DNA of 32,000 nucleotides from Parvibaculaceae bacterium. GTDB taxonomy: Bacteria > Pseudomonadota > Alphaproteobacteria > RS24. Position 1 is the stretch's first letter, and every line of letters begins with the position of its first letter. A model generated the notes under the pieces. It was not told where the DNA came from. It saw only the letters and a list, made by a program, of their open reading frames with translations, and searched no databases. The translations under genes and the position numbers were made by a program. Shown here in pieces: positions 1,270 through 27,226 of this stretch. Where the stretch lies: positions 127,065-159,064 of the forward strand of contig OZ240687.1 of assembly GCA_965199285.1 (NCBI GenBank), read 5' to 3'.

Positions 1270-1426
1270 TATACCTCAGGAGGCTTTGGGGGTAATGAGA
1301 AATATAAAATGTTATATGAATCTTGGTTTAGATTCTTGTTCTATATGCATTTTTAGAAAAGTATGCACGTATTTGCGTGCTGCTGGATAATAGCTCAACA
1401 CATAATTGGATATGTAGGAGGATATT

Positions 1427-1846
1427 ATGCCAGCCGATAAAGCGCGCATGTTTTTATATGATTTCTCGCCGGACGTGCTGCTCACCGCCAGTGTGAGGGA
1501 TGTTTACGCATGTGCAATGATAAAATTGGTTGCAAATCATACGGCTTTATCATCTCACACTAGTGAAGCCTATCTGATGGGGCCAAGCCGCGGGCGAAAA
1601 ATCCTCGCGCGGGCGCGGCAAAAAAGCCAATATTTAATGAATATTGTTTTTGCCATGGACTATACGCAGATCGGTAAATATACCAAACGTGACCGTACGA
1701 GTGTTGCTCATGCTTGTGGGGTGATAGAAGAAAGTCGTGATAATCTTGTCGTAGATAAGTCTTTATTTTTTACCGAAATGGCATTGCAAGCGATGGCGCA
1801 GGTGAGTTGGGGGGAAGATTATCTGGCGGCAGGGGAACAAAAATGA
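1427..1846 (+). CDS. DnaA domain-IV-like helix-turn-helix protein (candidate GafY-like N-terminal half of a GTA activator)
   Basis: 139-aa ORF with a strong RBS (AGGAGG at 1415-1420, 6 nt before the ATG). The C-terminal half reads GRKILARARQKSQYLMNIVFAMDYTQIGKYTKRDRTSVAHACGVIEESRD, which follows the DnaA C-terminal DNA-binding pattern (R..ARQ...YL....IG....RDHTTV.HA...IE). The functional call as a GTA activator is inference. Confidence 0.7.
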   Translation: MPADKARMFLYDFSPDVLLTASVRDVYACAMIKLVANHTALSSHTSEAYLMGPSRGRKILARARQKSQYLMNIVFAMDYTQIGKYTKRDRTSVAHACGVIEESRDNLVVDKSLFFTEMALQAMAQVSWGEDYLAAGEQK

Positions 1847-2610
1847 CTCCCGCTTTGCTTCAAGAGTTTCGCCGTATTGCACCGCGTTTGGTGCGCGCTG
1901 GTTCATTTCTTGCGGTACAGGATAAAACCCAGTTTGGATTATTTATTGCTCGCAATAAAGCCCGCCGTCCGGTTGTGAAAATAGATACACAAATTGTGAT
2001 GGCTTGGCAAAAACATGACTTGCTTGATGGCGATCAGCATAAATTTGTTCTAAGTAAGGCAGGTCATGCACTCTGGCGTCGCTTAAATGCAAATGGCGAT
2101 AAATTTCGGGCGCAGCATCAAATTATTCAGAATGTCAAAATTGATGATGATCATCGTAACGTCAAAAAAAATATGTCTGAAACGCCTTTGGCGTGGCTAA
2201 GGGCACGCAATCATCAGTCTGGCGTTTCGATAACCGATATCGAGTTTGATGCTGGTGAAAGATTGCGAGAAGATTTTGATGCTGCCCAACTAAACGCCCG
2301 GCTTACTGTTGATCTCACACAGGCGGTTAGTAGTAAAGGGCGACGGATCACGAATCGGGAAATTGTGCCGCTTAATGCTCTGGATGCACGCAAGCGTTTG
2401 CAACAGGCTTTGCAATATGCAGGGCCGGGATTGGCGGATATGTTGCTGATGACGTGTTGTGAATTATGTGGGATAGAAGAAAGCGAAAAGCGGTTTGGCT
2501 GGCCGCGTCGATCCGGCAAGCTGATGCTCAAAATGGGACTCGCGCGATTGGCGGTATTTTATGGGTTGCAAACCGATGAGGCGGCTTCGGAATCTTTGCG
2601 AATGCGTTGA
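1843..2610 (+). CDS. DUF6456-like protein (candidate GafZ-like C-terminal half of a GTA activator)
   Basis: The track ORF is 1807..2610. I prefer the ATG at 1843, which forms an ATGA overlap with the upstream stop and has GGGGAA just before it, giving 255 aa. The motifs SETPLAWLRAR and AGERLREDFDAAQL match my memory of DUF6456-family proteins. The C-terminus (KRFGWPRRSGKLMLKMGLARLAVFYGL) looks like an HTH. Confidence 0.65.
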   Translation: MTPALLQEFRRIAPRLVRAGSFLAVQDKTQFGLFIARNKARRPVVKIDTQIVMAWQKHDLLDGDQHKFVLSKAGHALWRRLNANGDKFRAQHQIIQNVKIDDDHRNVKKNMSETPLAWLRARNHQSGVSITDIEFDAGERLREDFDAAQLNARLTVDLTQAVSSKGRRITNREIVPLNALDARKRLQQALQYAGPGLADMLLMTCCELCGIEESEKRFGWPRRSGKLMLKMGLARLAVFYGLQTDEAASESLRMR

Positions 2611-2975
2611 ACCATTGCATAAAACCCGTTCGAACGTTGGGCACTTAAATGTTCGGAAAGGCCGAGTTGTTGAAAAATATCGGTAATATCTTGTGCCAAT
2701 ATATTTTGCGTAGGCTGCCCAGAATAAAGATCAATTAAAATAGCGATCAATCCTTTAACGATATGTGCATCACTATCCCCCCGAATGATAAGCTGCCCGT
2801 TCTCAAGCTTGCTTACCAGCCATACCTGACTGGCACAGCCGTGTACTTTATAGGTATCCGAATATTCATTCTCGGCAAGGGAGGCAAGGGATTGCCCGAG
2901 CTCAATAATATACCGATAGCGGTCTTCCCAATTATCAAATAGGGCGAAATCATCCAGCAAATCTTGTAAAGCCAT
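2559..2975 (-). CDS. sufE: SufE-family cysteine desulfuration (sulfur acceptor) protein
   Basis: 138 aa. The sequence LLDDFALFDNWEDRYRYIIELGQSL...YKVHGCASQVWL is the typical SufE/CsdE signature, including the acceptor Cys in the GCxSxVWL context. Confidence 0.85.
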   Translation of the reverse strand: MALQDLLDDFALFDNWEDRYRYIIELGQSLASLAENEYSDTYKVHGCASQVWLVSKLENGQLIIRGDSDAHIVKGLIAILIDLYSGQPTQNILAQDITDIFQQLGLSEHLSAQRSNGFYAMVQRIRKDSEAASSVCNP

Positions 2976-3389: not shown

Positions 3390-4494
3390 TATAATCGATA
3401 GTTTACGCAATTTTTGGCAACTCGTAAGAGACGTATTGAGTTCTGGTGAGTATGGCTTTAGTCCCTTGGAACTGATATTTGCGCTTGGCGTTTTTGCGCT
3501 ATTTGCGCTTGCGCGGGGTATCTTGTCGCGCTTTGTGATGGACAGGGCAGGGCGATGGGTTGCAAAAAGCAAAAATGAACTGGATGATGCGTTGCACAGT
3601 GTTTTAGCAAAACCAACTGAATTTTTCTTCCTAACCTTAGGGTTATTTTTTGCCTTTGAGATTTTCCAGATACAAGGTATCGCACAAGACATTTTGAATA
3701 ATATTTTGCGTAGCTTTATTGCCTTTGGTCTGTTTTGGGTGGTTCATGCGACCATTAAACCACTAACCTCGCCTCTGGCGCAATGGAATACGGTGCTATC
3801 TAACGAGATGGTTGAATGGTTTGGTAATATTATTGGGTGGGCTGTTATTGCGATTGGAACGGCAACGATTTTACAAATTTGGGGCATAGAGGTTGCCCCT
3901 ATTATTGCCGGTGTTGGGCTGTTTGGCGTTACGATTGCATTGGGCGCGCAAGATTTGTTCAAAAATCTGTTAGCTGGCGTTTCGATTTTAGTCGAACAGC
4001 GTTTCAAAGTCGGTGACTGGGTTGAAGTGGAAGATGAAATTGAAGGCATAGTCGAGCAAATCGGGTTTCGGTCAACGCGCATTCGTCGTTTGGATAAAGT
4101 ACCGGTCACGGTACCGAATAATTTATTTGCTGATCATGCCTTGATCAACCATTCTGAAATGACCCATCGACGGATTTATTGGCGTATTGGTTTAGCGTAT
4201 AACAGTACCGCCGCACAGCTTACTGAAATATGTGAACAGATAGAACAATGGGTTGATAATAACTCAGACTTTTCTACCCCTGAAGACGTGCCGAGGATGG
4301 TTAATATTGATCGCTTTGCCGATAGCTCGATTGATATTTTGATTTACACATTTACCAATACAACCGATTGGCAAGAATGGTTGCGCCATAAACAGGATTT
4401 AATTCTCGCGATTAAAGAGATTGTGGAAGCCGCTGGGACAAGTTTCGCGTTCCCCAGCCGGTCGATTTATATTGAACAAGGTGATAAGGTTTAA
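3382..4494 (+). CDS. Mechanosensitive ion channel (MscS) family protein
   Basis: The track ORF starts at GTG 3376. The ATG at 3382 has a GGGGAG RBS 5 nt upstream and overlaps the DUF1491 stop by 8 nt. N-terminal TM helices are followed by the MscS core GLFGVTIALGAQDLFKNLLAGVSILVEQRFKVGDWVEV. Confidence 0.85.
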   Translation: MDNIIDSLRNFWQLVRDVLSSGEYGFSPLELIFALGVFALFALARGILSRFVMDRAGRWVAKSKNELDDALHSVLAKPTEFFFLTLGLFFAFEIFQIQGIAQDILNNILRSFIAFGLFWVVHATIKPLTSPLAQWNTVLSNEMVEWFGNIIGWAVIAIGTATILQIWGIEVAPIIAGVGLFGVTIALGAQDLFKNLLAGVSILVEQRFKVGDWVEVEDEIEGIVEQIGFRSTRIRRLDKVPVTVPNNLFADHALINHSEMTHRRIYWRIGLAYNSTAAQLTEICEQIEQWVDNNSDFSTPEDVPRMVNIDRFADSSIDILIYTFTNTTDWQEWLRHKQDLILAIKEIVEAAGTSFAFPSRSIYIEQGDKV

Positions 4495-4513
4495 GCGTGA
4501 GCGTGTATTTATA

Positions 4514-5026
4514 CTAGCGTTGCCATAAAATGCCGCGTCTATCATCGCTGGCGGGCTGGTAGGCATCAGAAAAACTGGATATGGCGTTGGTGAAATCTTC
4601 AAGCGTCATATCATCGGTGACTTCAAACGCATCAATGCCGCAGCGCTGCATGAATTGTAACTGGTCGTAAAGCACTTCGCCACAGGCGCGAATTTCACCC
4701 GTAAAACCAAGCTCGCGTAAAATACGGGCGGAAGAAAATCCGCGCCCATTGCGGTAGATGGGAAATTCGATTGCAACCATCGTGACCATATCAAGATAGG
4801 GGGCAAGCGTATAAACATCCTCCCCCGCTTTTTCACCTGCCCGTAAGATAACCGCCAGAGGTTGGTTGCGATTTTTTAGATTATTGGCTTCGGCTTCCAG
4901 CTGGGATAGAGATATGATGCAAGGGGCATCAGCTAGGGCTGCATCATCGTCTACCAGCGTCCACTCATTTTCAACAAACGCCCATTTAGTATCGGATGAA
5001 TTGGCTTTGATAATTTTAGTCGGCAT
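4514..5026 (-). CDS. DUF934 domain protein (sulfite-reductase-associated)
   Basis: The track ORF 4514..5203 extends into cysI. The internal Met (MPTKIIKANS...) at 5026 gives 170 aa and an 11-nt overlap (ATGCCGACTAA) with the cysI stop. A DUF934 gene downstream of cysI is the usual alphaproteobacterial arrangement. Confidence 0.7.
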   Translation of the reverse strand: MPTKIIKANSSDTKWAFVENEWTLVDDDAALADAPCIISLSQLEAEANNLKNRNQPLAVILRAGEKAGEDVYTLAPYLDMVTMVAIEFPIYRNGRGFSSARILRELGFTGEIRACGEVLYDQLQFMQRCGIDAFEVTDDMTLEDFTNAISSFSDAYQPASDDRRGILWQR

Positions 5027-6671
5027 AAAGACGCTCCTTAAATGGTGGCATCCCAATGCGACGATAAGTATCAATAAAACGCTCATTATCTTGCCGTTCG
5101 ATAAGATAGGTTTCGACCACATTTTCAATCGCATCAATGATTTTATCTTCGGTAAAGGCACGGCCGGTAATCTCGCCAATCGCAGCATCCGTACCAGGTT
5201 CACCCCCTAATGAGATTTGATAAAATTCGGTTCCCTTTTTATCAACTCCTAAAATACCAATATGCCCGACATGGTGATGACCACAGGCATTAATGCAGCC
5301 CGAAATTTTAACCCGCAATTCGCCAATATCATATTGTCGGTCAAGATCAGCAAAGCGATGTGATAGCTCTTGCGCAAGCGGAATAGAGCGGGCATTGGCA
5401 AGGTTACAATAATCCAGCCCTGGGCAGGCAATACTATCGCTGATAAGGTTAAGATTGGGGGTTGCAAGATCATGCTGCTTTAAGATGTCATAAACGGTTT
5501 TGAGATCATCTTTTTTGACATGCGGTAGAACCAGATTTTGTTCATGGGTCACCCGTATTTCGTCATGGCTATAGCGTTGGGCAAGTTCAGCGACAATATC
5601 GATTTGCTGATCTGACGCATCACCGGGGATACCGCCAATTGGTTTAAGGGAAATATTTGCAATCGCATAGCCTGACATTTTATGAGCGACAATATTGGTT
5701 TTGATCCATTGGGCAAATTCCAGATCATCTGTGGAAGCCTGGGTAAGGGCGGCGCTTTCGTCGGGCAGGGTTTCAAAATCCGGATTGGCAAAATAGGCGC
5801 GAATGCGATTGATTTCGGCTTGCGGAAGGGTCAGCATATTATGGGCATCAATTTTAGAAAACTCTTCTTCTACGCGGCGTTGCATTTCATCCGCACCAAT
5901 TTCATGAACCAGAATTTTAATCCGTGCTTTATAAGAATTATCACGCCGCCCATGTAAATTATAAACCCGCATAACGGCTTCAAGATAAGCAAGCAGCTTT
6001 TGGGCTGGAACAAAATCAGCAATTTTTTTGGCGATAAAAGGGGTGCGCCCCTGACCGCCGCCCACATGGACTTCATACCCTGTTTCACCGACTTCATTTT
6101 TGACAATAACGATACCAATATCATGAAACCGGATCGCGGCACGATCTGTTGCATGCGCGCTTACGGCAATTTTGAACTTGCGGGGGAGAAAGCTAAATTC
6201 AGGATGAAAGCTGGACCATTGGCGGATAATCTCGGAAATAATTCGGGGATCTTCAATCTCATCCGCAATCGCGCCGGCAAATTGATCGGCGGTGACATTG
6301 CGGATACAATTTCCTGATGTTTGAATGGCGTGCATTTCGACCGTTGCGAGCTCTTCAAGTAAATCGGGGATGCGCTCAAGCGATGGCCAATTATATTGGA
6401 TATTCTGCCGCGTAGTGAAATGACCATAACCCTTATCATATTTACGGGCAATATGTGCCAGCATCCGCATCTGCCGCGATGATAAAGTACCATAAGGAAT
6501 GGCAACGCGCAGCATATAAGCATGTAATTGCAGATAGACACCATTCATTAACCGAAGTGGTTTGAAAGCATCTTCGCTTAATTTTCCGGTTAGGCGACGA
6601 TGAACCTGATCGCGGAATTGGGCGACCCGATCAGCAACCATTTTATGATCAAATTCATCATAGCGATACAT
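5016..6671 (-). CDS. cysI: Assimilatory sulfite reductase hemoprotein (nitrite/sulfite reductase family)
   Basis: 551 aa. It has nitrite/sulfite reductase 4Fe-4S/siroheme motifs: TTRQNIQYNW, SGNCIRNVT, the Cys cluster ACPGLDYCNLA ... ISGCINACGHHHVG. It is flanked by DUF2849 and DUF934 genes. Confidence 0.88.
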   Translation of the reverse strand: MYRYDEFDHKMVADRVAQFRDQVHRRLTGKLSEDAFKPLRLMNGVYLQLHAYMLRVAIPYGTLSSRQMRMLAHIARKYDKGYGHFTTRQNIQYNWPSLERIPDLLEELATVEMHAIQTSGNCIRNVTADQFAGAIADEIEDPRIISEIIRQWSSFHPEFSFLPRKFKIAVSAHATDRAAIRFHDIGIVIVKNEVGETGYEVHVGGGQGRTPFIAKKIADFVPAQKLLAYLEAVMRVYNLHGRRDNSYKARIKILVHEIGADEMQRRVEEEFSKIDAHNMLTLPQAEINRIRAYFANPDFETLPDESAALTQASTDDLEFAQWIKTNIVAHKMSGYAIANISLKPIGGIPGDASDQQIDIVAELAQRYSHDEIRVTHEQNLVLPHVKKDDLKTVYDILKQHDLATPNLNLISDSIACPGLDYCNLANARSIPLAQELSHRFADLDRQYDIGELRVKISGCINACGHHHVGHIGILGVDKKGTEFYQISLGGEPGTDAAIGEITGRAFTEDKIIDAIENVVETYLIERQDNERFIDTYRRIGMPPFKERLYAD

Positions 6672-10011: not shown

Positions 10012-10091
10012 AGAGTTTGTGGATTTTTAATTTAATCCTCTCTAAAAACATTATAAGCATATGAAAAATATAATTTTATTTGATTTTTCGG

Positions 10092-10121
10092 TTGACATAG
10101 CCGCACGCTCAATGCTATAAG
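10092..10121 (+). promoter_or_regulatory. Sigma70-like promoter candidate upstream of the GTA cluster
   Basis: TTGACA (10092-10097), then 16 nt, then GCTATAAG (10114-10121). This resembles the alphaproteobacterial housekeeping consensus (TTGAC.. / GCTANAWC). It rests on sequence resemblance only. Confidence 0.4.
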
Positions 10122-10135
10122 TTATGGCATGATGC

Positions 10136-10175
10136 AAAAAAGTCGGTAAGGAGATGTCTCCCACCTGCTTTTTTT
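10136..10175 (+). terminator. Intrinsic-terminator-like hairpin with flanking A6 and T7 tracts
   Basis: A6 (10136-10141) comes first. The stem pairs G45-C65, G46-C64, T47-A63, G50-C61, G51-C60, A52-T59 and G53-C58, with loop ATGT (10154-10157). Outer pairs G42-C68 and T43.G67 extend it, and T7 (10169-10175) follows. It lies after the promoter candidate and 55 nt before the g1 ATG. Confidence 0.5.
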
Positions 10176-10201
10176 ATGCATTAACTTTTTTATGCATTTA
10201 A
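10168..10201 (+). repeat. Tandem direct repeat C-T(6-7)-ATGCATT-(T)AA, two copies
   Basis: CTTTTTTTATGCATTAA (10168-10184) and CTTTTTTATGCATTTAA (10185-10201). The palindromic ATGCAT cores sit at 10176-10181 and 10192-10197, 16 bp apart, immediately upstream of g1. Confidence 0.7.
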
Positions 10202-10229: not shown

Positions 10230-10535
10230 ATGAATAAGGATAATAAACGCCCTGCCGACATTCTTGATGATGTGCAGGAAAAATTATTACATGCGTTTGA
10301 AGATTTACAACGCAGCCTTCCCCTTCCGGGTGATGAGGTGCCGCAAGATTATGAACGTCTCGCACGGATTATTGAACATATGGTGAAAACGCTCGATACG
10401 CTCAGGCGTTTCGCGCGTGAATATGACAAACAAGAAGAAGAGCAAAACAGCACCAGCCAGTCCACGCTTCTCGCCGAAATTGAACATCGGTTGGGTCGCC
10501 TCTCTGCCACCACAGAAGAGACAGACATTTCTTAA
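10230..10535 (+). CDS. GTA g1-position small protein (small-terminase-like by position)
   Basis: The track ORF starts at TTG 10206. The first ATG is 10230 (MNKDNKRPADILDDVQEKLL...), giving 101 aa. It is predicted helical with an acidic C-terminus. The call rests on its position before TerL only, and no clear RBS precedes either start. Confidence 0.5.
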   Translation: MNKDNKRPADILDDVQEKLLHAFEDLQRSLPLPGDEVPQDYERLARIIEHMVKTLDTLRRFAREYDKQEEEQNSTSQSTLLAEIEHRLGRLSATTEETDIS

Positions 10536-11781
10536 CGGCTTATCAAAGCAAGAAGTTAAAGCGCTGTATTGGTATTGGCCGTTCTGGGCACGAGACGATC
10601 AGTTACCGCCGGACGGGGATTGGACGAGCTGGCTTTTATTAGGTGGACGTGGGGCTGGCAAAACGCGCTCTGGCGCGGAATGGGTGCGGGCGCTGGTGGA
10701 AGCAGATGATAAGGATTCGGGCTGCCGCAATATTGCTCTCATTGGTGAAACACTGGCGGCGGCGCGGCAAGTTATGGTTGAAGGCCCTTCGGGTCTGTTG
10801 AGCGTGTCGCCCCCTTATTTTAAGCCGCGCTTTTATGCCAGCCGCAATATGCTGATCTGGCCAAATGGCGCACGCGCTTATTTATTTTCGGCAATGCGGC
10901 CAGAAAATTTGCGCGGGCCACAATTTGATGCCGCTTGGTGCGATGAATTGGCAAAATGGCGATATGATGAAATGACATGGGATATGCTGCAATTTGGTTT
11001 GCGGTTGGGAGATAATCCGCGTCAGGTTGTCACCACAACGCCAAAACCAACGGCGCTCATTAAACGCCTCTTGGCGGACCCCAAATGCGTTGTGACGCGG
11101 GCCGGAACAAAAGCGAATATCGCCAATCTGGCGCCGTCTTTTATGAAGGATATTGTTGGGCGCTATGAAGGAACCCGGCTTGGTAGGCAAGAATTGGATG
11201 CGGAATTGCTGGAAGATACGCAAGGTGCATTGTGGAATTATGACCTTTTGACGCGTCAGCGTTGCAGTGAGGTTCCGGAATTTGTCCGGATTATTGTTGC
11301 GGTTGATCCGCCGGTTGGTAGTGGTCCGAAAGCAGATGCCTGCGGCATTATTGCCTTAGGGCTAAGCGCGCAAGGGTATGTTTATGTGCTAGATGATTGT
11401 TCGGTGCAAGGCTTAAGCCCCGCCAAATGGGCGCGCCGCGTCATAGATGCGTATCATGATTATGAGGCAAGTGCGCTGGTTGCTGAAATTAATCAGGGCG
11501 GTGAGCTTATTCGCGAATTAATCATCCGCGAGCAGCCGGATGTAAATTATCAAGCGGTACGCGCAACCCGCGGCAAACTTATTCGGGCGGAACCGGTTGC
11601 GGCGCTTTATGAACGTGGAAAAGTGTTTCATATCGGGCGGTTTGACGCGCTTGAAAAAGAAATGTGCCAATATGATGGGCATGGTGCTAGCCCCGACCGC
11701 TTAGATGCGTTGGTGTGGGGTGTCACAGAATTATTGCTGCGCCGCAAGCGCGCCATACGCCCAACCATGCGGCGCTTATAG
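10417..11781 (+). CDS. GTA terminase large subunit (g2 equivalent)
   Basis: 454 aa. The N-terminal GTA TerL pattern is WVASLPPQKRQTFLNGLSKQEVKALYWYWPFWARDDQLPP, and Walker A is LLLGGRGAGKTRSGAEW. The start is uncertain (GTG 10417, ATG 10423 or TTG 10480), and every option overlaps g1. Confidence 0.9.
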   Translation: MNMTNKKKSKTAPASPRFSPKLNIGWVASLPPQKRQTFLNGLSKQEVKALYWYWPFWARDDQLPPDGDWTSWLLLGGRGAGKTRSGAEWVRALVEADDKDSGCRNIALIGETLAAARQVMVEGPSGLLSVSPPYFKPRFYASRNMLIWPNGARAYLFSAMRPENLRGPQFDAAWCDELAKWRYDEMTWDMLQFGLRLGDNPRQVVTTTPKPTALIKRLLADPKCVVTRAGTKANIANLAPSFMKDIVGRYEGTRLGRQELDAELLEDTQGALWNYDLLTRQRCSEVPEFVRIIVAVDPPVGSGPKADACGIIALGLSAQGYVYVLDDCSVQGLSPAKWARRVIDAYHDYEASALVAEINQGGELIRELIIREQPDVNYQAVRATRGKLIRAEPVAALYERGKVFHIGRFDALEKEMCQYDGHGASPDRLDALVWGVTELLLRRKRAIRPTMRRL

Positions 11782-11795
11782 ATTAAGGAGTTAGA

Positions 11796-13010
11796 ATGTC
11801 AGTTTTTGATCCTATGTTAAATAGGTTACCCTTTCGCACGCCGAAAGAGGATTTAGAGAAAAAGCATAGCCGGGTTATGTTCCCCAACACGGATGCGAAT
11901 ATGCAAGCGCGGTGGCCGCAGCATAATTATAGTTCTCATATTCATACTGGATTTCGGCATAATCCGATCGCTTATCGTTGTATTCGGACGATTGCTGAAG
12001 CCAGCGCCTCGTTACCGATTAAAATATTAAATGGCGGGCAAGAAGATGAAACGCATCCGGTTAAAAAATTGCTTGCCTATCCCAATTCTTATCAGACGGG
12101 CATAGATTTGCTGGAGGATTTTTATACTTATTTATTGGTGCATGGCAATAGTTACCTCGAATATGTTGTTGGTGGCGAGCATGAAGGGGGTGATTTTTAT
12201 TCGCTCCGCCCTGATCGGATGAAGCTCGTGCCGGGGCGCGATGGTCGCCCGGTTGCGTATGAATATATGGTGAATGGACAGACCACACGCTTTGCTCAAG
12301 ATGAACATGCCCCCTCTATTTTACATGTGAAAATGAGCGATCCATTGGATGATCATTATGGATATAGTCCTCTTGCTTCGGCAGCAGCGGCGTGTGAGGT
12401 TCATAATACGGCCTGCCAGTGGAATAAATCATTATTTGATAATGCGGCGCGGCCATCTGGCGCTTTAGTTTATCGTGGGGTTGATGGTGCACCGCATTTA
12501 ACCGATGAACAATTTGATCGCCTTAAGCTCGAATTAGAAGAAAATTTTCAAGGCGCGCGTAATGTTGGGCGGCCGCTTTTATTGGAAGGCGGGTTAGAGT
12601 GGAGTGCGATTAGCCTTAGCCCGCAAGACATGGATTTTATCCAAGCCAAACATTCTGCGGCGCGCGATATTGCATTGGCGTTTGGGGTGCCGCCTATGTT
12701 GTTGGGCATTCCCGGTGATAATACTTATGCCAATTATGCGGAAGCAAATCGGGCGCTTTGGCGGCAGACGATTTTGCCACTTGTACAACGGTCTTTGCGT
12801 GCGATCGAACGCCATCTTGCCCATTATTATGCTGACCTCAAACTTACACCTGACCTTAATCAATTGCCTGCCTTATCCGAAGAACGAAACCGATTATGGG
12901 ATCGTGTCGGGGCAGCAGATTATTTAACCGTTAATGAGAAACGGGAAATGGTCGGCTTGCCGCCCCTCGATGCAGGAGATGTGGATGAGGGAGATGAAAA
13001 TGCAGATTAA
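11796..13010 (+). CDS. Phage portal protein, HK97 family (g3 equivalent)
   Basis: 404 aa with RBS AAGGAG at 11785-11790. Portal motifs include NPIAYRCIRTIAEASASLP, HGNSYLE and FGVPPMLLGIPGDNTYANYAEANRALWRQTI. Confidence 0.9.
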   Translation: MSVFDPMLNRLPFRTPKEDLEKKHSRVMFPNTDANMQARWPQHNYSSHIHTGFRHNPIAYRCIRTIAEASASLPIKILNGGQEDETHPVKKLLAYPNSYQTGIDLLEDFYTYLLVHGNSYLEYVVGGEHEGGDFYSLRPDRMKLVPGRDGRPVAYEYMVNGQTTRFAQDEHAPSILHVKMSDPLDDHYGYSPLASAAAACEVHNTACQWNKSLFDNAARPSGALVYRGVDGAPHLTDEQFDRLKLELEENFQGARNVGRPLLLEGGLEWSAISLSPQDMDFIQAKHSAARDIALAFGVPPMLLGIPGDNTYANYAEANRALWRQTILPLVQRSLRAIERHLAHYYADLKLTPDLNQLPALSEERNRLWDRVGAADYLTVNEKREMVGLPPLDAGDVDEGDENAD

Positions 13011-13479
13011 AGGTTATGCAAGCCTGTTTCATGCTCCTGACAAGACAGGCGATGAAATTCTACCCGGCGCATTTCGAAAGACATTAGCACAGCCAACAGA
13101 AGGCTTTGTCCGTATGTTGTATCAACATGATGTAAACCGTCCGATTGGCAAATGGATGACTATTCGTGAGACCAAAAAAGGCCTATGGGTTGAAGGCATA
13201 TTGGCTACCCATTCAAGCGAAGTTAAAAATGTCGCGGCGCTTATTTCGGCTGGTGCTGTTGACGGATTATCGATTGGTTATCGTGTTAATCAGGCCATAA
13301 AAGGGCGTGGGAAAATCCGCCGCTCTATCAGAGAGATTGAGCTGGTGGAAATATCAATTGTAACATTTCCAATGCAATTACAAGCACGTATTCAAAAAAC
13401 AAAAGACTCTGTGGCAACTGCCACAACCCACATGCATGGGGCTGCAAAGCGCCTGCATAAATTATCCATGACCAAGTGA
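13000..13479 (+). CDS. HK97-family prohead protease (g4 equivalent)
   Basis: The track ORF is 12934..13479. The Met at 13000 (MQIKGYASLFHAPDKTGDEILPGAF) overlaps the portal stop by 11 nt. The S49-like prohead protease pattern is YQHD...PIGKW ... DGLSIGY ... EISIVTFP. Confidence 0.85.
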   Translation: MQIKGYASLFHAPDKTGDEILPGAFRKTLAQPTEGFVRMLYQHDVNRPIGKWMTIRETKKGLWVEGILATHSSEVKNVAALISAGAVDGLSIGYRVNQAIKGRGKIRRSIREIELVEISIVTFPMQLQARIQKTKDSVATATTHMHGAAKRLHKLSMTK

Positions 13480-13490
13480 AAGGAAAAAAT

Positions 13491-14702
13491 ATGGAACTGG
13501 AATATGCTTCACAACATGAAGACACACATGAAAATGTGGAAATCAAATCAGCGCTTGATGAGATGCTAACCGCTTTTGAGCAGTTTAAGCATACCAATGA
13601 TGAGCGTTTGGATGAGATTGAAAAGCGACAAGACGCGGATGTGCTCACCGAAGAAAAGCTAGCGCGCATTGATAAGCGTTTGTCACAATTATCAAAAGGT
13701 GTACAAAGTCCGGCTCTTGAAGTTTCAGCATCTAACCGTGATGAGCTGGAAGCGAAAATGGCGTTTTCGGATTATATCCGTTCCGGCAATGCGATGGCGG
13801 TTGCGAATTTATCACGGCGTTCTTATGCTGCGACAAATGGCGATGATGGGGCTTTGTTGGTTCCCGATCAAACTCAGCTTCGGCTTGATAATGTTGTCGG
13901 CATGCAGTCTATTATGCGGCAGCTGGCACATGTGCAACAAGTCATGAGCGGTAGCTATTTGAATGTGGTTTATAGCGATGAAACGGCAAGCGCAAACTGG
14001 GTAGGTGAAACAGCTGCGCGGGCGGAAACAAATGTTGCGCCCTTGCAAGAGCAACGCATTAACTTTTTTGAAATGGTGGCAAATCCTGCTTGCACATCAC
14101 AATTTGTGGAAGATGCAAGCGTCGATGTTGAAAGCTGGTTGGTTGAGAATTTGGCCGAAAGTTTTGCAGAAGTGGAAAGTGAAGCCTTTATCACCGGTAA
14201 TGGCACAAGTCAACCGAAAGGGATTGTAGATGTGACGCTTGGTACGGGCGACAAACAAGTAAGCGCTCTTAAAAGTGGTCAGGCAACAAAATTGGGAACC
14301 GATCCGGTTGCGAAACTTCTGGATTTTTCTTTTGGGCTTGATCGTCGCTATCGCGCCAATGCAAGCTGGTTGATGAATGGCTCAACGCTTTCAGAAATTC
14401 GGAAACTGAAAGATAGTGATGGTAATTATATTTGGGTTCCAAATCTGTCAGCCGGACAAGCGGCAACATTATTGGGTCACCCTGTTTATGAAGAAAGCAA
14501 TATGCCAGATATTGCTGCCAATGCCTTACCAATTGCATTTGGGGATTTCAAATCTGCCTATATGATTATTGATCGGCGCGGCCTCTCATTGCTTCGTGAT
14601 CCGTATAGCAATAAACCTTATATCATGTTCTATTGCACCCGACGCGTCGGTGGCGCGGTGGTCAATTATAAGGCTTATCGGTTGTACCAGATTGCGGCAT
14701 AA
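13491..14702 (+). CDS. HK97-type major capsid protein with an N-terminal coiled-coil (delta-like) domain (g5 equivalent)
   Basis: The track start is GTG 13476. The ATG at 13491 has an AAGGA RBS 6 nt upstream. The C-terminal region (FAEVESEAFITGNGTSQPKGI ... YIWVPNLSAGQAATLLGHPVYE) is typical of the HK97 capsid family. Confidence 0.9.
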   Translation: MELEYASQHEDTHENVEIKSALDEMLTAFEQFKHTNDERLDEIEKRQDADVLTEEKLARIDKRLSQLSKGVQSPALEVSASNRDELEAKMAFSDYIRSGNAMAVANLSRRSYAATNGDDGALLVPDQTQLRLDNVVGMQSIMRQLAHVQQVMSGSYLNVVYSDETASANWVGETAARAETNVAPLQEQRINFFEMVANPACTSQFVEDASVDVESWLVENLAESFAEVESEAFITGNGTSQPKGIVDVTLGTGDKQVSALKSGQATKLGTDPVAKLLDFSFGLDRRYRANASWLMNGSTLSEIRKLKDSDGNYIWVPNLSAGQAATLLGHPVYEESNMPDIAANALPIAFGDFKSAYMIIDRRGLSLLRDPYSNKPYIMFYCTRRVGGAVVNYKAYRLYQIAA

Positions 14703-14704
14703 TT

Positions 14705-15268
14705 ATGATTAGCCTTTTAACACAAGGGCCGCAAATTGAACCCGTAACGGTCGCGCAACTGCGCGACCATTTGCGCTTGGATAGTTCCGAAGATAATCTT
14801 TTGGCGAGCCTGATTAGCTCGGCGCGGATGGTGGTGGAAGCCCAAAGCGGTGTGCATTTGATTAATCAGAAATGGAATTTCATTCTTGATGAATGGCCGC
14901 AAAATCATGTTGCCCTATCGCAATGGCCGGTCATATCTGTGGATAAGATCAATGTGATCGGCACCGAAGTGGAATTAGTTTCACCAGAAACATACCGCCT
15001 CGAAACCTATGCGCGACCCGCCACGATATGGTTAAATGAAGGGCAAATATGGCCACAAATTAAGCGCGATAAAATGGGGATCGTCATTGAAGCATCGATC
15101 GGTTATGGCGCGCGGGCGGATGATGTTCCCGAACCCTTGCGGCATGTCATTATGCTGCTGGCGGCGCATTGGTTTGAAAGCAATGAGTGGAATGGACAAA
15201 TTCCCTCATCGCTTATTCCCGCTTCAATTACCGGCATGCTGCAAAATTATCGGCAAATGCGAATCTAA
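14705..15268 (+). CDS. Head-tail connector/adaptor protein (gp6-like, g6 equivalent)
   Basis: 187 aa. VTVAQLRDHLRLDSSEDNLLASLISSARMVVEAQSG is the phage gp6-like head-tail connector N-terminal pattern. Its position follows the capsid gene. Confidence 0.75.
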   Translation: MISLLTQGPQIEPVTVAQLRDHLRLDSSEDNLLASLISSARMVVEAQSGVHLINQKWNFILDEWPQNHVALSQWPVISVDKINVIGTEVELVSPETYRLETYARPATIWLNEGQIWPQIKRDKMGIVIEASIGYGARADDVPEPLRHVIMLLAAHWFESNEWNGQIPSSLIPASITGMLQNYRQMRI

Positions 15269-15269
15269 A

Positions 15270-15590
15270 ATGCGGCGGCTTAAATTTCAATTACAACAGC
15301 AAAATCTTCATAATGATGGTTTTGTTTGGGAAACCGTTTCTGAACTGTGGGGGCATTTAATGTCCCGCCATCACAAATTGGAAATTCGGGCCGGCGTAGA
15401 AGAGCAAATCGTAACCCATATGATCCGCCTTCATTATCATGAGGGCATTCGTCCGGGTATGCGATTTCTACGCGGCACACGAATATTCGAGATATTGACA
15501 GTCAATGATGTGGGTGAACGCCAGCGCCGTATGGATTGTTTGTGTAGCGAGCAAATTGAACTTGACCCCCTATGGGAGCGTGAGACATGA
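15270..15590 (+). CDS. Head-tail adaptor / head closure protein (g7 equivalent)
   Basis: The track ORF 15036..15590 overlaps g6. The in-frame ATG at 15270 lies 1 nt after the g6 stop and gives 106 aa. Size and position match the SPP1 gp16/HK97 gp9-like adaptor of GTA clusters. Confidence 0.65.
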   Translation: MRRLKFQLQQQNLHNDGFVWETVSELWGHLMSRHHKLEIRAGVEEQIVTHMIRLHYHEGIRPGMRFLRGTRIFEILTVNDVGERQRRMDCLCSEQIELDPLWERET

Positions 15591-15973
15591 GTATGGCTGC
15601 AAATGCGTTATTGGATAGAGTGTTTGAACATATCAGCGCCGATTCCGAATTACAAAAATTATATCATAAGCACGCTGGCCCGCGCCGGCGTTTGCCGCGC
15701 ATATCATTTGATTTTATCGAAACCCAACCGGTTGAGCAGATTGCGGATTTGGAACGCCACAGGCTGCAATTTTCAATCTGGGCAGATTTACACGCAATGG
15801 CGGAAATATTGGATTGGGGTCACAAAATGCGATCCCATTTCGATAATTTAGACGCGCCCGAAAATTATCATTTGGTTGAGTTTCGAGTTTTGCAACAAAA
15901 TCTCAGCCCCGATTATGGGGATCGATTATGGCGTTATGAAATTCAATATGAAGCGCTAACCGAGCCACGCTGA
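15587..15973 (+). CDS. DUF3168-type tail completion/terminator protein (g8 equivalent)
   Basis: 128 aa with an ATGA overlap onto g7. Size and position match the GTA g8 family. Confidence 0.6.
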   Translation: MSMAANALLDRVFEHISADSELQKLYHKHAGPRRRLPRISFDFIETQPVEQIADLERHRLQFSIWADLHAMAEILDWGHKMRSHFDNLDAPENYHLVEFRVLQQNLSPDYGDRLWRYEIQYEALTEPR

Positions 15974-15984
15974 AGGAGATAAAA

Positions 15985-16398
15985 ATGGCAATACAAAGAG
16001 GAAAAGATATTCTGCTGAAAATCAAAAACAAAGAAACCAGCAGTTTTGAAACAATAGGAGGTTTGCGCAGTAGCGAAATCGCATTTAACGCGCAACCTAT
16101 TGATGTCACCAATGCCGGAAGTGCCGGACGCTGGCGCGAATTTCTTGGCAATAGCGGCATTCGTTCCGCCCGCATACGCGGCGAAGGTGTATTTCGTGAT
16201 GAAAGTTCAGATGAGCTTATTCGTGAAATATTTTTTAATGGCGGACAGGAAGAATGGCAACTCGTATTGCCGAATTTTGGGACATTAAGTGGAAATTTCT
16301 CTCTCACAATTCTCAATTATGCAGGCGCGCATGATGGGGAAGTGAATTGGGATATTGAGCTTCTGTCTGCCGGAGAAATACGTTTTGTCACGCTTTAG
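15985..16398 (+). CDS. Major tail (tube) protein, TP901-1-like (g9 equivalent)
   Basis: 137 aa with a strong RBS (GAAGGAGA, 15973-15980). AIQRGKDILLKIKN...FETIGGLRS...I.FNAQPIDVTN matches the GTA major tail protein pattern. Confidence 0.8.
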   Translation: MAIQRGKDILLKIKNKETSSFETIGGLRSSEIAFNAQPIDVTNAGSAGRWREFLGNSGIRSARIRGEGVFRDESSDELIREIFFNGGQEEWQLVLPNFGTLSGNFSLTILNYAGAHDGEVNWDIELLSAGEIRFVTL

Positions 16399-16411
16399 AT
16401 GTGTCCCCTTT

Positions 16412-16729
16412 ATGAGCAATAAAAAGCGCGGCGAGCTCACCCTTATCATCAATGGGCGGCGGCGTTATTTGAAATTAAACTTACATGCGCTGGCGTGTCT
16501 TGAAAGCGCTTATAATGATACCGACATATTGCAGCTGGTGAAAAACTTTGCCGAAACTGGCATGGGGGCGGGTGATGTCGAAAAAATTATTCGTGCCGGT
16601 CTTATTGGTATGGATGACCCGCTTTGTGAAACAGAGCAATCGCTGGATGTGGAAGGCGGGTTTTTGGCCGCCCAAGAGACAGCAATGGAATTACTGCAAC
16701 TTGCCCTAGGATATGATGATGACATATGA
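16412..16729 (+). CDS. GTA family small protein / tail assembly chaperone-like (g10 equivalent)
   Basis: The track ORF is 16355..16729. The Met at 16412 (MSNKKRGELTLIINGRRRYLKLNLHALACLES) lies 13 nt after the g9 stop and gives 105 aa. The pattern and position match GTA g10. Confidence 0.65.
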   Translation: MSNKKRGELTLIINGRRRYLKLNLHALACLESAYNDTDILQLVKNFAETGMGAGDVEKIIRAGLIGMDDPLCETEQSLDVEGGFLAAQETAMELLQLALGYDDDI

Positions 16730-16934
16730 AACCAAAAACTGCCGCGATATGAGATTCCCCTGGCGCGGGATTATGCGCCTCGCGCAATTACATGGAATTG
16801 AGACACAAGCAGCTTGGACAATGACACCAGCTGACCTTTTCTCACTCTTCGATCTTGACACGCGTCAGCCGATCAAGCGGCAGGATATTTTAAGATTAAT
16901 GAAACAATTTCCCGATGAACAGGATAAATCATAA
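16713..16934 (+). CDS. Small GTA tail-assembly protein (g10.1 equivalent)
   Basis: 73 aa. FPWRGIMRLAQLHGIETQAAWTMTPADLFSLF resembles the conserved small ORF between g10 and the tape measure in GTA clusters. The start could be 16713 or 16749. Confidence 0.6.
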   Translation: MMMTYETKNCRDMRFPWRGIMRLAQLHGIETQAAWTMTPADLFSLFDLDTRQPIKRQDILRLMKQFPDEQDKS

Positions 16935-17368
16935 TGCCCTCTGGATTACAAGAATTAGCAAATGCGGCATCACAAGCTGATGCAAATATAAAAGCCGTCA
17001 ATAAAAGTCTGTATGAATTTCAAAAGGCGCAAGACAAATCAGGATTGGCGGCGGTAAAATTAGGGATTTCGATCGTCGAAGCCTTTGGCGATGTTGATGA
17101 GCGTACCCGCAAGCTTTTGCGTCTGATCGAACAATTGGCACAAGTGTTGCAACGGGGAAGTGAGTTACCGCCATCTGCACGTGGTGGCGGGGGCAGATTG
17201 TCCGATCAATCATCGGCATTGGCGCATAGTTTTAACGCCCATAATTCAGGCTCATTGCCGGTGAATATAAATCTACATTCGCCTGATATGGCAGGCTTCC
17301 AAAGGTCGGAGGGGCAGTTGACAACATTATTTGCGCGCGCCCTTTCGCGTGGCTTTCAAGGGTTTTAG
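16934..17368 (+). CDS. Tail tape measure protein, short GTA type (g11 equivalent)
   Basis: 144 aa with a TAATG junction to g10.1. A helical N-terminal part is followed by a Gly/Ser-rich linker (ARGGGGRLSDQSS). Its position before the distal tail protein is typical. Confidence 0.65.
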   Translation: MPSGLQELANAASQADANIKAVNKSLYEFQKAQDKSGLAAVKLGISIVEAFGDVDERTRKLLRLIEQLAQVLQRGSELPPSARGGGGRLSDQSSALAHSFNAHNSGSLPVNINLHSPDMAGFQRSEGQLTTLFARALSRGFQGF

Positions 17369-17379
17369 GTGGAGTGATA

Positions 17380-18033
17380 ATGTCTGATTATTTTCATCAT
17401 GTGGTTATGCCAGAGCATCTGGCTTTTGGGTCAAGCGGCGGACCGCTTTATAAAACTGAAATTGTGCAGACCGCCTCGGGATATGAATATCGTAATGCAC
17501 CTTGGGCGCATAGTTTGCGGCGCTATAATCTCACCAGCGGAGCGCGCCCCTTAGCGGATATTCAAACCCTGCTTGCTTTTTTTGAAGCCCGCCGTGGACG
17601 GCTATATGGGTTTTTATGGCGCGATTGGATGGATGACCGCTCAAGCCTAAATGGACAAGAGATAAGTGCAACAGACCAACCCTTATCTGCGACGGACGCA
17701 CAGGGGCGGCATTTTCATATTTACAAATATTATGGCAGTGGTGAGGATGCGGTGGCGCGGCGGATTAGGAAGCCCAGGCCAGATAATTTTTTACTTGCCA
17801 AAAATAAAACGGCTTTAAGAAAAGATACAGACTATCATTTAGATCATCAAAATGGTGTTGTGACCTTAAATACCGCTCTTGCGCGCGGCGAGGTGCTAAC
17901 GGCAGGGTTTCATTTTTATGTGCCCGTACGCTTTGATACGGATGATCTGGAAGTGCAGCTCAATTCATTTGATACCGGCATTTTACCGTCGGTTCCGCTA
18001 TTAGAGGTTAAGCTGTCGGATGATGCGGCATGA
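17380..18033 (+). CDS. DUF2460-type distal tail protein (g12 equivalent)
   Basis: The ATG at 17380 follows an AGGTGGAG RBS (the track start is GTG 17374). FGSSGGPLYKTEIVQTASGYEYRNAPWAHSLRRYNL ... FFEARRGRLYGFLWRDWMD is the conserved GTA g12 signature. Confidence 0.85.
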   Translation: MSDYFHHVVMPEHLAFGSSGGPLYKTEIVQTASGYEYRNAPWAHSLRRYNLTSGARPLADIQTLLAFFEARRGRLYGFLWRDWMDDRSSLNGQEISATDQPLSATDAQGRHFHIYKYYGSGEDAVARRIRKPRPDNFLLAKNKTALRKDTDYHLDHQNGVVTLNTALARGEVLTAGFHFYVPVRFDTDDLEVQLNSFDTGILPSVPLLEVKLSDDAA

Positions 18034-18869
18034 AAAATTTACCAGAAACATTTAAGGATAATCTCGAATCTGAAGTGACGCATTTATGTCGGTGCTGGCA
18101 AATCACCCGCCGCGATGGTGTGCATTTAGGGCTTACCGATCACAATAATGCGCTTCGCTTTAATAATATATTATTCCATGCCAATGCGGGGATGAATGTC
18201 ACCGCGATTGAACAGCGCAGTGGCTTGTCAGCGCATGGGCTGGATGTGAAAGGGGTGATCGGTTCGCCGTATCTTGCGGCTGAGGATTTGCAAAAAGGGC
18301 TTTACGATCATGCACGCTTGCAAATTTTTCTGGTTGATTGGCAAAATCCAGAAAATCATCTTTTGCTGATTAGTGGAATCTTTGCTGAGGTTACGATTGA
18401 GCAAGGTGCGTTTCAGGTTTCGCTTAAAACAGTAATGTCGCATTTGCAAAATCAGAAAGGGCGGGTTTATCAACGTAGTTGTGATACCGCGCTGGGCGAT
18501 AAGCGTTGTGGTATTGATCTTAGCCAAGATAAATTCCAAGCCAAGCGACAAATTCGAGCGCTTGATAACACCCAATTAACATTTGATAATCTACCGCATC
18601 AGGCGGGATGGTTCGGGCAGGGTAAAATTATCCTTGCATCCGGTCAAGCGATTGATATTCGTGAGGATTCGCAAAAGGATAATCAGCGCATTATTGTTTT
18701 ATGGCAAGCGCCGCCGGCGAATATAAAGCCAGGTGATGAGGTCACATTGCAGGCCGGATGTGACAAGCAATTTTCGACATGCAAAACAAAATTTGCCAAT
18801 CAGATAAATTTTCAGGGCTTTCCGCATTTACCAACCGAAACCACATTGATTTCTGTCGCCGGTTTATAA
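18030..18869 (+). CDS. DUF2163 / BR0599-type tail hub protein (g13 equivalent)
   Basis: 279 aa with an ATGA overlap onto g12. THLCRCWQITRRDGVHLGLTDHNNALRFNNILF ... FQGFPHLP matches the GTA g13 family pattern. Confidence 0.85.
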   Translation: MKNLPETFKDNLESEVTHLCRCWQITRRDGVHLGLTDHNNALRFNNILFHANAGMNVTAIEQRSGLSAHGLDVKGVIGSPYLAAEDLQKGLYDHARLQIFLVDWQNPENHLLLISGIFAEVTIEQGAFQVSLKTVMSHLQNQKGRVYQRSCDTALGDKRCGIDLSQDKFQAKRQIRALDNTQLTFDNLPHQAGWFGQGKIILASGQAIDIREDSQKDNQRIIVLWQAPPANIKPGDEVTLQAGCDKQFSTCKTKFANQINFQGFPHLPTETTLISVAGL

Positions 18870-18871
18870 AT

Positions 18872-19303
18872 ATGTCTACCGATAAGATTATTAAAATTGC
18901 CCGTAGCTGGTGTGATACGCCATATCAGCATCAGGCGAGTGTGAAAGGGGTTGGGGCCGATTGTCTTGGTCTTATTCGCGGTATTTATCGCGAGCTTTAT
19001 GGGCAAGAAGCAGCAACGGTTCCCGCCTATCAAAGACGTGCCCGCCTTGCTGAGGGGGAAGTGTTGTGGCACGCTGCGGCGCAATATTTGCAGGCCGAAT
19101 CTTTGCCTCCCAAGCGCGGATATGTGCTTCTTTTCCGCTTACAGCCGCAACAACCAGCGCGTCATTTAGGGGTGCTTTCTGGCACGGATACAATGATCCA
19201 TGCCGCGCATGATATGAAGGTTTGTGAAGTGCACTATCACCGGTTTTGGCAAAAGCGACTTGTCGCCTGTTTTTCGTTTTCTGCTGTAAAGGATAATTTC
19301 TAA
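18872..19303 (+). CDS. NlpC/P60 family cell-wall peptidase (g14 equivalent)
   Basis: The track ORF is 18779..19303. The ATG at 18872 lies 2 nt after the g13 stop and gives 143 aa. WCDTPYQHQASVKGVGADCLGLIRGIY contains the catalytic Cys context, and MIHAAH contains the His. Confidence 0.85.
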   Translation: MSTDKIIKIARSWCDTPYQHQASVKGVGADCLGLIRGIYRELYGQEAATVPAYQRRARLAEGEVLWHAAAQYLQAESLPPKRGYVLLFRLQPQQPARHLGVLSGTDTMIHAAHDMKVCEVHYHRFWQKRLVACFSFSAVKDNF

Positions 19304-19304
19304 A

Positions 19305-23781: not shown

Positions 23782-23793
23782 TAGAGGGAGAGA

Positions 23794-24444: not shown

Positions 24445-24898
24445 TCGATTTTTCCGCCTCTCCAAATCGAGGCGCGCGCTTGTGCTTGTGCTGGGTTTTT
24501 CGTTTTTGATGCTCACAATCGGGCTCATGCTCACTGCGCTTGAAGATAATATTATTTTCTTCCGTACCCCGTCCGATCTTACCAATGCAGAACGTCACTC
24601 TGACCGCGTGATGCGGCTTGGCGGTTTGGTGAAAGAAGAAAGCTGGCAAGGTGAGGGGCTGGAAAATAAATTCATCATTACCGACCTTGAGAAAGAGGTG
24701 GCGGTGGTCTATCGCGGTATTTTGCCTGACCTGTTTCGCGAAAATCAGGGCGTGATTGCGCAAGGGCGGTTTGTCGATGATTTGTTTATCGCCGATACGG
24801 TGCTTGCCAAACATGATGAAACCTATATGCCCAAAGAGGTTGCCGATCAGTTAAAAAAATCTGGTAAATGGAAGGAGCCCGCGCGCGATGATTATTGA
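24434..24898 (+). CDS. ccmE: Cytochrome c maturation heme chaperone CcmE
   Basis: 154 aa with an N-terminal membrane anchor, an OB-fold region and the heme-binding His motif LAKHDETYMPKEV. Confidence 0.92.
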   Translation: MSFNRFFRLSKSRRALVLVLGFSFLMLTIGLMLTALEDNIIFFRTPSDLTNAERHSDRVMRLGGLVKEESWQGEGLENKFIITDLEKEVAVVYRGILPDLFRENQGVIAQGRFVDDLFIADTVLAKHDETYMPKEVADQLKKSGKWKEPARDDY

Positions 24899-27214: not shown

Positions 27215-27226
27215 GGGCATAATCGC

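Follow-up and report, generated by a model that had tools for sequence, protein, structure and literature searches.

Is the gene transfer agent (GTA) cluster of a Parvibaculaceae bacterium switched on by a two-gene activator encoded a few kilobases upstream of it? The question is raised by a 32,000-nucleotide stretch of that genome (NCBI GenBank assembly GCA_965199285.1, contig OZ240687.1, positions 127,065 to 159,064 of the forward strand; hereafter 'the window', numbered from its first nucleotide), in which two adjacent open reading frames (ORFs), ORF1 and ORF2, lie 5′ of a head–tail cluster of the type encoding the GTA of Rhodobacter capsulatus (RcGTA). An original prediction, made by reading the letters of the window, took the pair to be the split form of the GTA activator GafA, equivalent to GafY and GafZ of Caulobacter crescentus. 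Here, we conclude that the two genes are probably gafYZ orthologs that activate the cluster at 10230–23024, and we outline the evidence for this conclusion, the points that weigh against it, and the alternatives.

Earlier publications cover the split activator, the way it works, and its synteny with sufE; what we describe is a known arrangement in another genome, and the current understanding is unchanged by it. In Rhizobiales, gafA is often split into a DnaA-like and a sigma-like ORF (Fogg 2019), and a DnaA-like gene, a gafA-like gene, and sufE are syntenic across Hyphomicrobiales (Sherlock & Fogg 2022). Among 759 GafZ homologs, 494 have an adjacent GafY, the split form being commoner than the fused one; the study that reported these counts also renamed HdaB as GafY (Gozzi 2022). 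GafY contacts sigma-70 regions 3–4 with IHF, and GafZ is an anti-terminator (Tran & Le 2024). Parvibaculales, too, are already known as carriers of RcGTA-type clusters.

The gene pair and its operon

ORF1 (gafY-like; 139 amino acids) occupies positions 1427–1846 of the + strand, from an ATG at 1427 to a TGA ending at 1846, and ORF2 (gafZ-like; 255 amino acids) occupies 1843–2610 of the same strand, from an ATG at 1843 to a stop codon ending at 2610. Direct reading of the sequence places a Shine–Dalgarno motif, AGGAGG, at 1416–1421 (+), five bases 5′ of the ORF1 ATG, and a start/stop overlap between the two ORFs, ATGA, at 1843–1846 (+); the overlap suggests that their translation is coupled. 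Positions, lengths, and overlap are as originally predicted, and the peptide strings quoted in that prediction are all present in the translations.

In relatives, the junction between the two genes is an overlap of 7–20 nucleotides (nt) or a gap of 12 nt (five Parvibaculales loci with the junction read), and because the adjacent pairing is kept in these five loci, we regard ORF1 and ORF2 as real genes. Together they form one coupled operon: adjacent and co-oriented, in an arrangement kept in relatives, and with a natural fusion of the two known.

Relationship of ORF1 and ORF2 to GafA, GafY, and GafZ

ORF1 belongs to the GafY family and is a stand-alone DNA-binding protein of the DnaA domain-IV type. 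Pfam recognises Bac_DnaA_C on residues 35–98 (E 1.3e-8; 35.2 bits, with a cut-off of 31.5 bits), and BLASTP aligns the protein with C. crescentus GafY at 35% identity over 60 amino acids (E 9e-9). When a profile of ORF1 and 52 relatives is compared by hhalign with a profile of 14 GafA-type N-termini, ORF1 residues 66–119 align with GafA residues 18–71 (probability 97.1%, E 6.9e-11), and on the strength of this profile comparison, the sole link between the two, ORF1 is the counterpart of the N-terminal DNA-binding domain of GafA. The family profile of ORF1 likewise matches domain IV of Escherichia coli DnaA (1j1v; E 7.7e-15). The AlphaFold2 model (predicted local distance difference test [pLDDT] 88.4, predicted template modelling score [pTM] 0.83) superposes on the complex of that domain with a DnaA box (1j1v) with a root-mean-square deviation of 1.8 Å over 91 columns, and its top 12 Foldseek matches in the PDB are all DnaA domain IV.

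An exhaustive HMMER search yielded 1441 cluster representatives related to ORF1, and nearly all of the best 150 are stand-alone proteins of 120–190 amino acids; a word-indexed homolog search with ORF1 returned the query itself only. The two gene types are also found in one chain: P0165, a metagenomic protein of 434 amino acids, carries Bac_DnaA_C at 38–103 and DUF6456 at 267–400 and is a natural fusion of both. In the N-terminal domains of Rhodobacterales-type GafA proteins, unlike in P0165, Pfam sees only a generic helix-turn-helix (HTH), as HTH_38, LysR, IclR, or MarR. The identification of ORF1 as the replication initiator DnaA itself was considered and rejected: the protein has 139 amino acids, matches domain IV only, and lacks the AAA+ domain III.

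Two domains of GafA are found in ORF2, the central one and the C-terminal one (DUF6456). Pfam places DUF6456 on residues 108–241 (E 9.5e-39), and BLASTP aligns ORF2 both with C. crescentus GafZ (36% identity over 138 amino acids, E 2e-18) and with residues ~110–364 of R. capsulatus GafA (31% over 263 amino acids, E 2e-23). Alignments with fused GafA-type proteins of 370–400 amino acids extend over 93–96% of its length, and the family-invariant residues, including AGERLR, GPGL, CC, and RSGK...Y, are all kept. Its AlphaFold2 model (pLDDT 86.9) has an alpha/beta N-terminal domain (residues 1 to ~105), which aligns with the omega-binding central part of GafA, followed by a helical C-terminal domain. 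The point at which ORF1 and ORF2 are divided is that of the published Hyphomicrobiales split, roughly between the GafA constructs Nc (1–86) and Cx (87–382) (Sherlock & Fogg 2022).

These results bear out most of the original prediction. The DnaA domain-IV-type segment that it saw in ORF1 and the DUF6456-like character that it gave to ORF2 are both recovered by Pfam, and its assignment of the pair to the GafY/GafZ form of a split GafA agrees with the BLASTP matches to GafY and GafZ. Its expectation that automated annotation would be uninformative also held: Pfam and NCBIfam yield no functional name, NCBIfam giving only sub-threshold matches for ORF1 (to DnaA and to the PRK06030 models, named 'hypothetical protein') and no match for ORF2. 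The proposed equivalence of ORF2 to the C-terminal half of GafA was right for the C-terminus but too narrow, the central domain being covered as well. The prediction erred in having the sigma-like C-terminus of GafA contact RNA polymerase; the R. capsulatus protein contacts the polymerase, at its omega subunit, through the central region and binds DNA through the sigma-like C-terminus.

Searched against the PDB with Foldseek, the ORF2 model gave only local matches, of ~60 residues, to region 4 of extracytoplasmic function (ECF) sigma factors (probability 0.66–0.80, E >2); a sigma-region-4-like HTH predicted in this way agrees with the published 'sigma-like' description and would not alone establish it. 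That ORF2 is itself a sigma-70 or ECF sigma factor was rejected, there being no sigma match in Pfam or NCBIfam and only region-4-like local matches in Foldseek. Among predicted viral structures, ORF2 is best matched by the DUF6456 protein from Roseobacter phage RDJL Phi 1 (E 2e-9), a phage in which a GafA homolog had already been pointed out (Fogg 2019); a scan of viral contigs found no relatives.

The GTA cluster and its upstream region

The presumed regulatory target is the head–tail cluster at 10230–23024 (+), which is 12.8 kb long and runs from a g1-like to a g15-like ORF. By Pfam assignment, it encodes a large terminase, a portal, an S78 protease, a capsid, a connector, head-completion and tail-completion proteins, a tail tube, GTA-gp10, a DUF2460 protein, a hub, an NlpC/P60 protein, and a protein of 1239 amino acids that carries GTA_TIM and Rcc01698_C domains. 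Judged by this content, the cluster looks complete and of the RcGTA type. Its first ORF starts at 10230, 7.62 kb past the ORF2 stop and on the same strand, which is where the original prediction had put a GTA cluster.

The intergenic DNA upstream of the cluster has a mean column identity of 55% in an alignment of four Parvibaculales loci. It contains a predicted promoter at 10092–10121 (+), with a −35 element TTGACA (10092–10097), an 18-nt spacer, and a −10 element TATAAG (10116–10121). The spacer is GC-rich in its conserved core, GCCGCACGC; this spacer, like TTGAC, is kept in the window and in three related loci (L001, L002, and L006, described below). About 25 nt 5′ of the −35 element, the same four-locus alignment reveals a conserved box, TTATAAGCATATGAAAAAT, at 10051–10069 (+), which reads TGTAACTATATGAAAAAAA or TGTAACTATATGAAAAA in relatives and which we can only infer to be a candidate site for a GafY-type activator. 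In Caulobacter, GafZ binds a palindrome (ZBE) located between the −35 and −10 elements, with the GafY site upstream (Tran & Le 2024). The GC-rich spacer of the predicted promoter occupies the place of this palindrome, and by analogy the predicted layout in the window would be compatible with such an arrangement of sites.

The DNA that separates the predicted promoter from the first GTA ORF contains, at 10136–10175 (+), a hairpin followed by seven T that resembles an intrinsic terminator. Its predicted RNA fold has a free energy of −14.2 kcal/mol and a z-score of −3.9, none of 200 shuffled sequences being as stable; a simple terminator scan did not call it. The hairpin offers a lead, as a candidate terminator that the GafZ-like protein might override. 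On its 3′ side, at 10170–10198, lie two 13-nt direct repeats, TTTTTTATGCATT, each with a copy of TATGCATT.

The pair has an upstream region of its own. ORF1 is preceded by a divergent MFS transporter gene on the − strand (start at about 1128), and the intergenic region between them, 1129–1426, is presumed to hold the promoter and operator of the pair. A perfect 18-bp palindrome, ATTGATTAATTAATCAAT, at 1210–1227 is contained in a 24-nt inverted repeat (1204–1227 and 1246–1269) of which the outer 11 bp are perfect (GGTTGTATTGA and TCAATACAACC), and the whole element looks like an operator. Near the GTA promoter, the palindrome does not recur. On the + strand of 1129–1426, no promoter of the sigma-70 consensus type was called, and the CtrA box TTAA-N7-TTAA is absent from the whole window. 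The region is poorly conserved among relatives, and an alignment of three such upstream regions contains no convincing block.

Two motifs that might have linked the upstream region of the pair to that of the cluster were rejected. The three copies of TATGCATT in the 32-kb window (at 1344, 10175, and 10191) are all on the + strand and all in these two regions, but this number is no higher than chance would give and relatives lack the motif, so it was discarded as a shared operator. CTATATG, which is similar to the core ACTATG of the Caulobacter GafY site, turns up in five of nine upstream regions, at positions that are not conserved, and has a background frequency of about one per 4–5 kb.

Synteny and co-loss in related genomes

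Scans of genome and metagenome collections gave 13 related loci, none of them from the genome of the window itself: eight from the genome scan, all from Parvibaculales-type metagenome-assembled genomes (MAGs), and five on metagenome contigs without a taxon label. The nearest locus is that of a Parvibaculaceae MAG, with 55% protein identity. With minor gaps, one gene order is common to the window and to loci L001, L002, L006, L010, and L012, namely MFS transporter, gafY, gafZ, sufE, DUF1491, mscS, DUF934, sulfite reductase, DUF2849, ABC transporter, ycgN (the label that we use for the gene of a CxxCxxCC protein), GTA cluster, nitroreductase, and ccm genes. The genes from sufE to ycgN, between the pair and the cluster, are housekeeping genes. 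Given this conserved order, the spacing of 7.6 kb is inherited synteny and not an operonic link.

Across these six loci, the state of the pair can be set beside that of the cluster. In the window, the pair is intact and the cluster complete; in L002 and L010, the pair is intact and GTA genes are present as far as the end of the locus. In L012 (2138–2919 and 10648–12725), gafY is absent, gafZ is reduced to residues 88–255, and the GTA locus to its promoter, a fragment of g1, and the last ~270 codons of g15. In L006 (9560–10510 and 18239–18647), gafY is again absent, gafZ lacks its first 87 codons, and only the promoter, up to the −35 element and spacer, is left. The gafZ fragments of L006 and L012 are ~97% identical, and we therefore count the two as one loss lineage. 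The pair is thus degraded only in the lineage that has lost the GTA cluster, and in no locus do GTA genes occur together with a degraded pair, an outcome in keeping with the co-occurrence of pair and cluster that the original prediction had proposed to check. Within the L006/L012 lineage, the GTA locus has decayed stepwise, L012 retaining more of it than L006.

The remaining locus, L001, is that of the closest relative and lies on a 1.54-Mb contig. Its pair is intact, and its GTA cluster has an internal deletion: at 18476–19941, terminase residues 16–337 abut capsid residues 242–408 in another frame, terminase residue 337 being joined to capsid residue 242, and the portal, the protease, and the capsid N-terminus are missing. 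The locus also lacks ycgN.

The sufE gene of the window (2559–2975, −; Pfam SufE, E 5.9e-46) is convergent with ORF2 and is the synteny marker of a Hyphomicrobiales-type gafA locus; in each of the eight Parvibaculales loci from the genome scan, sufE likewise adjoins the pair. The 3′ ends of ORF2 and sufE overlap by 52 bp (2559–2610), and by 49 bp in L001 and 31 bp in L002, and there is therefore no space for an intervening terminator. On the 3′ side of the GTA cluster (23083–29264) are genes for a nitroreductase, ccmI, ccmE, ccmF, ccmH, and an OmpR-type response regulator with a histidine kinase, followed by two − strand ORFs (29695–30297 and 30854–31180) without a Pfam match.

Two observations on other loci are added here. 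L009 (MW462191.1, 71124–81723) is part of a 103-kb freshwater record that carries Tet(X4) and is filed as 'Bacteriophage sp.', the only phage-labelled record with a homolog; at 3390–6308, it encodes a transcriptional regulator, a 151-amino-acid DNA-binding protein, a 268-amino-acid hypothetical protein (4-nt overlap), and a convergent SufE. Its reading as phage DNA was rejected, since it carries the bacterial regulator–gafY–gafZ–sufE synteny and is probably bacterial. In L003, a Parvibaculum locus, and equivalently in L004, a gene for a 215-amino-acid protein with an XRE-type HTH lies divergently and directly 5′ of the gafY-like gene (1771–2418, −, in L003); the protein has an N-terminal HTH and a C-terminal part of ~120 amino acids, of which Pfam sees the HTH only. 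Compared by layout alone, the gene recalls that of RogA, the repressor of Caulobacter gafYZ.

Proposed mechanism and alternative explanations

The reading of the pair as a split activator is supported by the homology to GafA, GafY, and GafZ, the DnaA domain-IV and DUF6456 domains, the P0165 fusion, and the operon structure, and further by the published synteny, the complete GTA cluster on the same strand, the co-loss of pair and cluster, and the conserved promoter with its leader hairpin. If the characterised homologs are a guide, the GafY-like protein would bind upstream of the GTA promoter and help to recruit RNA polymerase, and it would probably bind the promoter of the pair as well. The GafZ-like protein would set its sigma-region-4-like HTH on the GC-rich element that separates −35 from −10 in the 10092–10121 promoter and would then engage RNA polymerase, possibly through the omega subunit by means of its N-terminal domain, as in GafA. 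The polymerase could then read through terminators, the likeliest being the leader hairpin with its T-run at 10136–10175, and the whole 12.8-kb cluster would be transcribed.

Several points weigh against this reading. The regulatory link between pair and cluster is drawn from homology and co-occurrence, and the co-loss is a single, unreplicated event in one lineage of a small sample, with L001 as a partial exception. Pairwise BLASTP of ORF1 with R. capsulatus GafA is not significant (E 2.6), and the original equation of ORF1 with the N-terminal half of GafA accordingly stands in the profile comparison and fails in the pairwise one. Neither sequence nor profile searches nor Foldseek gave ORF2 a significant match in the PDB, and its likeness to sigma region 4 is that of matches with E >2. 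The GafA, GafY, and GafZ sequences that we used were machine-read from a supplementary figure (Tran & Le 2024), with a few residues missing. At the DNA level, the predicted −35 element is a perfect consensus, unlike the degenerate, activator-dependent −35 of Caulobacter; neither L001 nor L002 conserves the leader hairpin; terminator-like sites inside the GTA cluster are not enriched; and no motif common to the upstream region of the pair and the GTA promoter survived comparison with relatives. Finally, the pair of L001 is intact despite its broken cluster, and the truncated gafZ genes of L006 and L012 differ by 10 synonymous and 4 non-synonymous codons, which together hint at roles beyond the head–tail cluster.

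Such roles would come to the fore if the pair were a broader regulator, with envelope, stress, fitness, or dispersed GTA accessory genes as its main targets and a position near the cluster that reflects synteny without regulatory meaning. The housekeeping genes in between and the conserved spacing fit this explanation as well as L001 and the 10:4 ratio do, and so does the binding of Caulobacter GafY to about 18 other promoters (Tran & Le 2024) and the scoring of Brucella gafA homologs as fitness factors (Sherlock & Fogg 2022). We nevertheless hold it to be improbable: in both experimental systems, the head–tail cluster is the principal direct target, and the only place where GafZ binds; all four non-synonymous gafZ changes fall in L012 and at conserved positions, which looks like decay; and GTA genes are never found with a degraded pair. 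Very improbable, in our view, is that ORF1 is an HdaB-type regulator that acts on HdaA and the regulatory inactivation of DnaA (RIDA) to stimulate replication initiation, with ORF2 unrelated or accessory and with no direct role at the GTA cluster. ORF1 does have a true DnaA domain-IV fold, and its Caulobacter ortholog CCNA_01111 was originally named HdaB on account of phenotypes in replication and cell division when overexpressed (Frandi & Collier 2020, as cited in Gozzi 2022). Those phenotypes have, however, been reread as consequences of GTA induction, and GafY was found at GTA promoters by chromatin immunoprecipitation sequencing (Gozzi 2022); moreover, ORF1 is coupled to a DUF6456 gene, the two domains are fused in P0165, and gafY was lost along with the GTA cluster in L006 and L012.

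That the pair might be an inactive relic, unexpressed or unable to activate, is barely credible, even though no promoter was recognised 5′ of ORF1 and the locus decays in some relatives: both frames are intact, ORF1 has a strong Shine–Dalgarno motif, the family-invariant DUF6456 residues are all kept, both AlphaFold2 models are confident, and the target cluster is complete. We therefore return to the pair as a split activator of the cluster.

A near-consensus promoter closely 5′ of a terminator-like hairpin resembles PR′–tR′ of phage lambda. One possibility, which we think unlikely without dismissing it, is that control of the GTA cluster is exerted chiefly at elongation, much as by lambda Q: the promoter, possibly constitutive, would fire into the leader terminator, and the GafZ-like protein would be the decisive switch. 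As part of the same scheme, and with no greater expectation, the GC-rich spacer would be the loading site of the GafZ-like protein, which would hold RNA polymerase by a GafA-type omega-binding domain; it would also follow, a supposition about which we are similarly doubtful, that Caulobacter GafZ has largely lost that domain. Were this Q-like control real, the pair would be an intermediate between fused GafA and Caulobacter GafYZ.

The identification has some practical consequences. Two genes that carry domain-level labels only (Bac_DnaA_C and DUF6456) can be named gafY and gafZ, and the GTA cluster of the window can be marked as probably regulated and functional. The decay of the pair alongside the loss of the cluster in Parvibaculales is a small natural experiment that favours a functional link, and the compact promoter and leader region is a place in which to test GafZ anti-termination outside Caulobacter.

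Comparison with known systems

R. capsulatus GafA (rcc01865) has the same domain order as the pair, with a DNA-binding, a central, and a DUF6456 domain. It differs in being a single polypeptide of 382 amino acids, in having an N-terminal HTH that is generic in Pfam rather than Bac_DnaA_C, and in being under the control of CtrA and quorum sensing, whereas the window has no CtrA box. With domain IV of DnaA (E. coli, 1j1v; Mycobacterium tuberculosis, 3pvp), ORF1 shares the fold and the recognition helix RDxT(T/S)VxHAC; in contrast to DnaA, it is a stand-alone protein of 139 amino acids without the AAA+ domain or domains I–II and is not a replication initiator.

GafZ has been likened to Q-type anti-terminators, which load between −35 and −10, after which RNA polymerase ignores downstream terminators. 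No sequence similarity or significant structural similarity of ORF2 to lambda Q, Q21, or Pseudomonas aeruginosa AlpA was detected, and we do not claim membership of that group for it.

The two-gene gafA loci of Hyphomicrobiales (e.g. Agrobacterium and Brucella) resemble the locus in the window in consisting of a small DnaA-like gene, a gafA-like gene for a protein of 22–32 kDa, and a convergent sufE. Upstream, they have mucR or an HTH regulator gene, whereas the window has a divergent MFS transporter gene, and the closest relatives found are Parvibaculales.

In Caulobacter, the N-terminal part of GafZ is described as poorly GafA-like, whereas in ORF2 the ~105 N-terminal residues can be aligned with the GafA central region. 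The window further differs in the consensus −35 element of its predicted GTA promoter, in a terminator-like hairpin that lies in the leader and not after the first gene, in having no visible gene for a RogA-type repressor, and in the distance of 7.6 kb between pair and cluster, which in Caulobacter lies elsewhere on the chromosome as an RcGTA-type cluster. These differences are set against a likeness of organisation and sequence: GafY (CCNA_01111, formerly HdaB) and GafZ (CCNA_01112) are encoded, like ORF1 and ORF2, in a two-gene operon in which a gene for a small DnaA domain-IV protein is followed by one for a DUF6456 protein of ~250 amino acids, and in their conserved parts the two proteins are 35% and 36% identical to those of the window.

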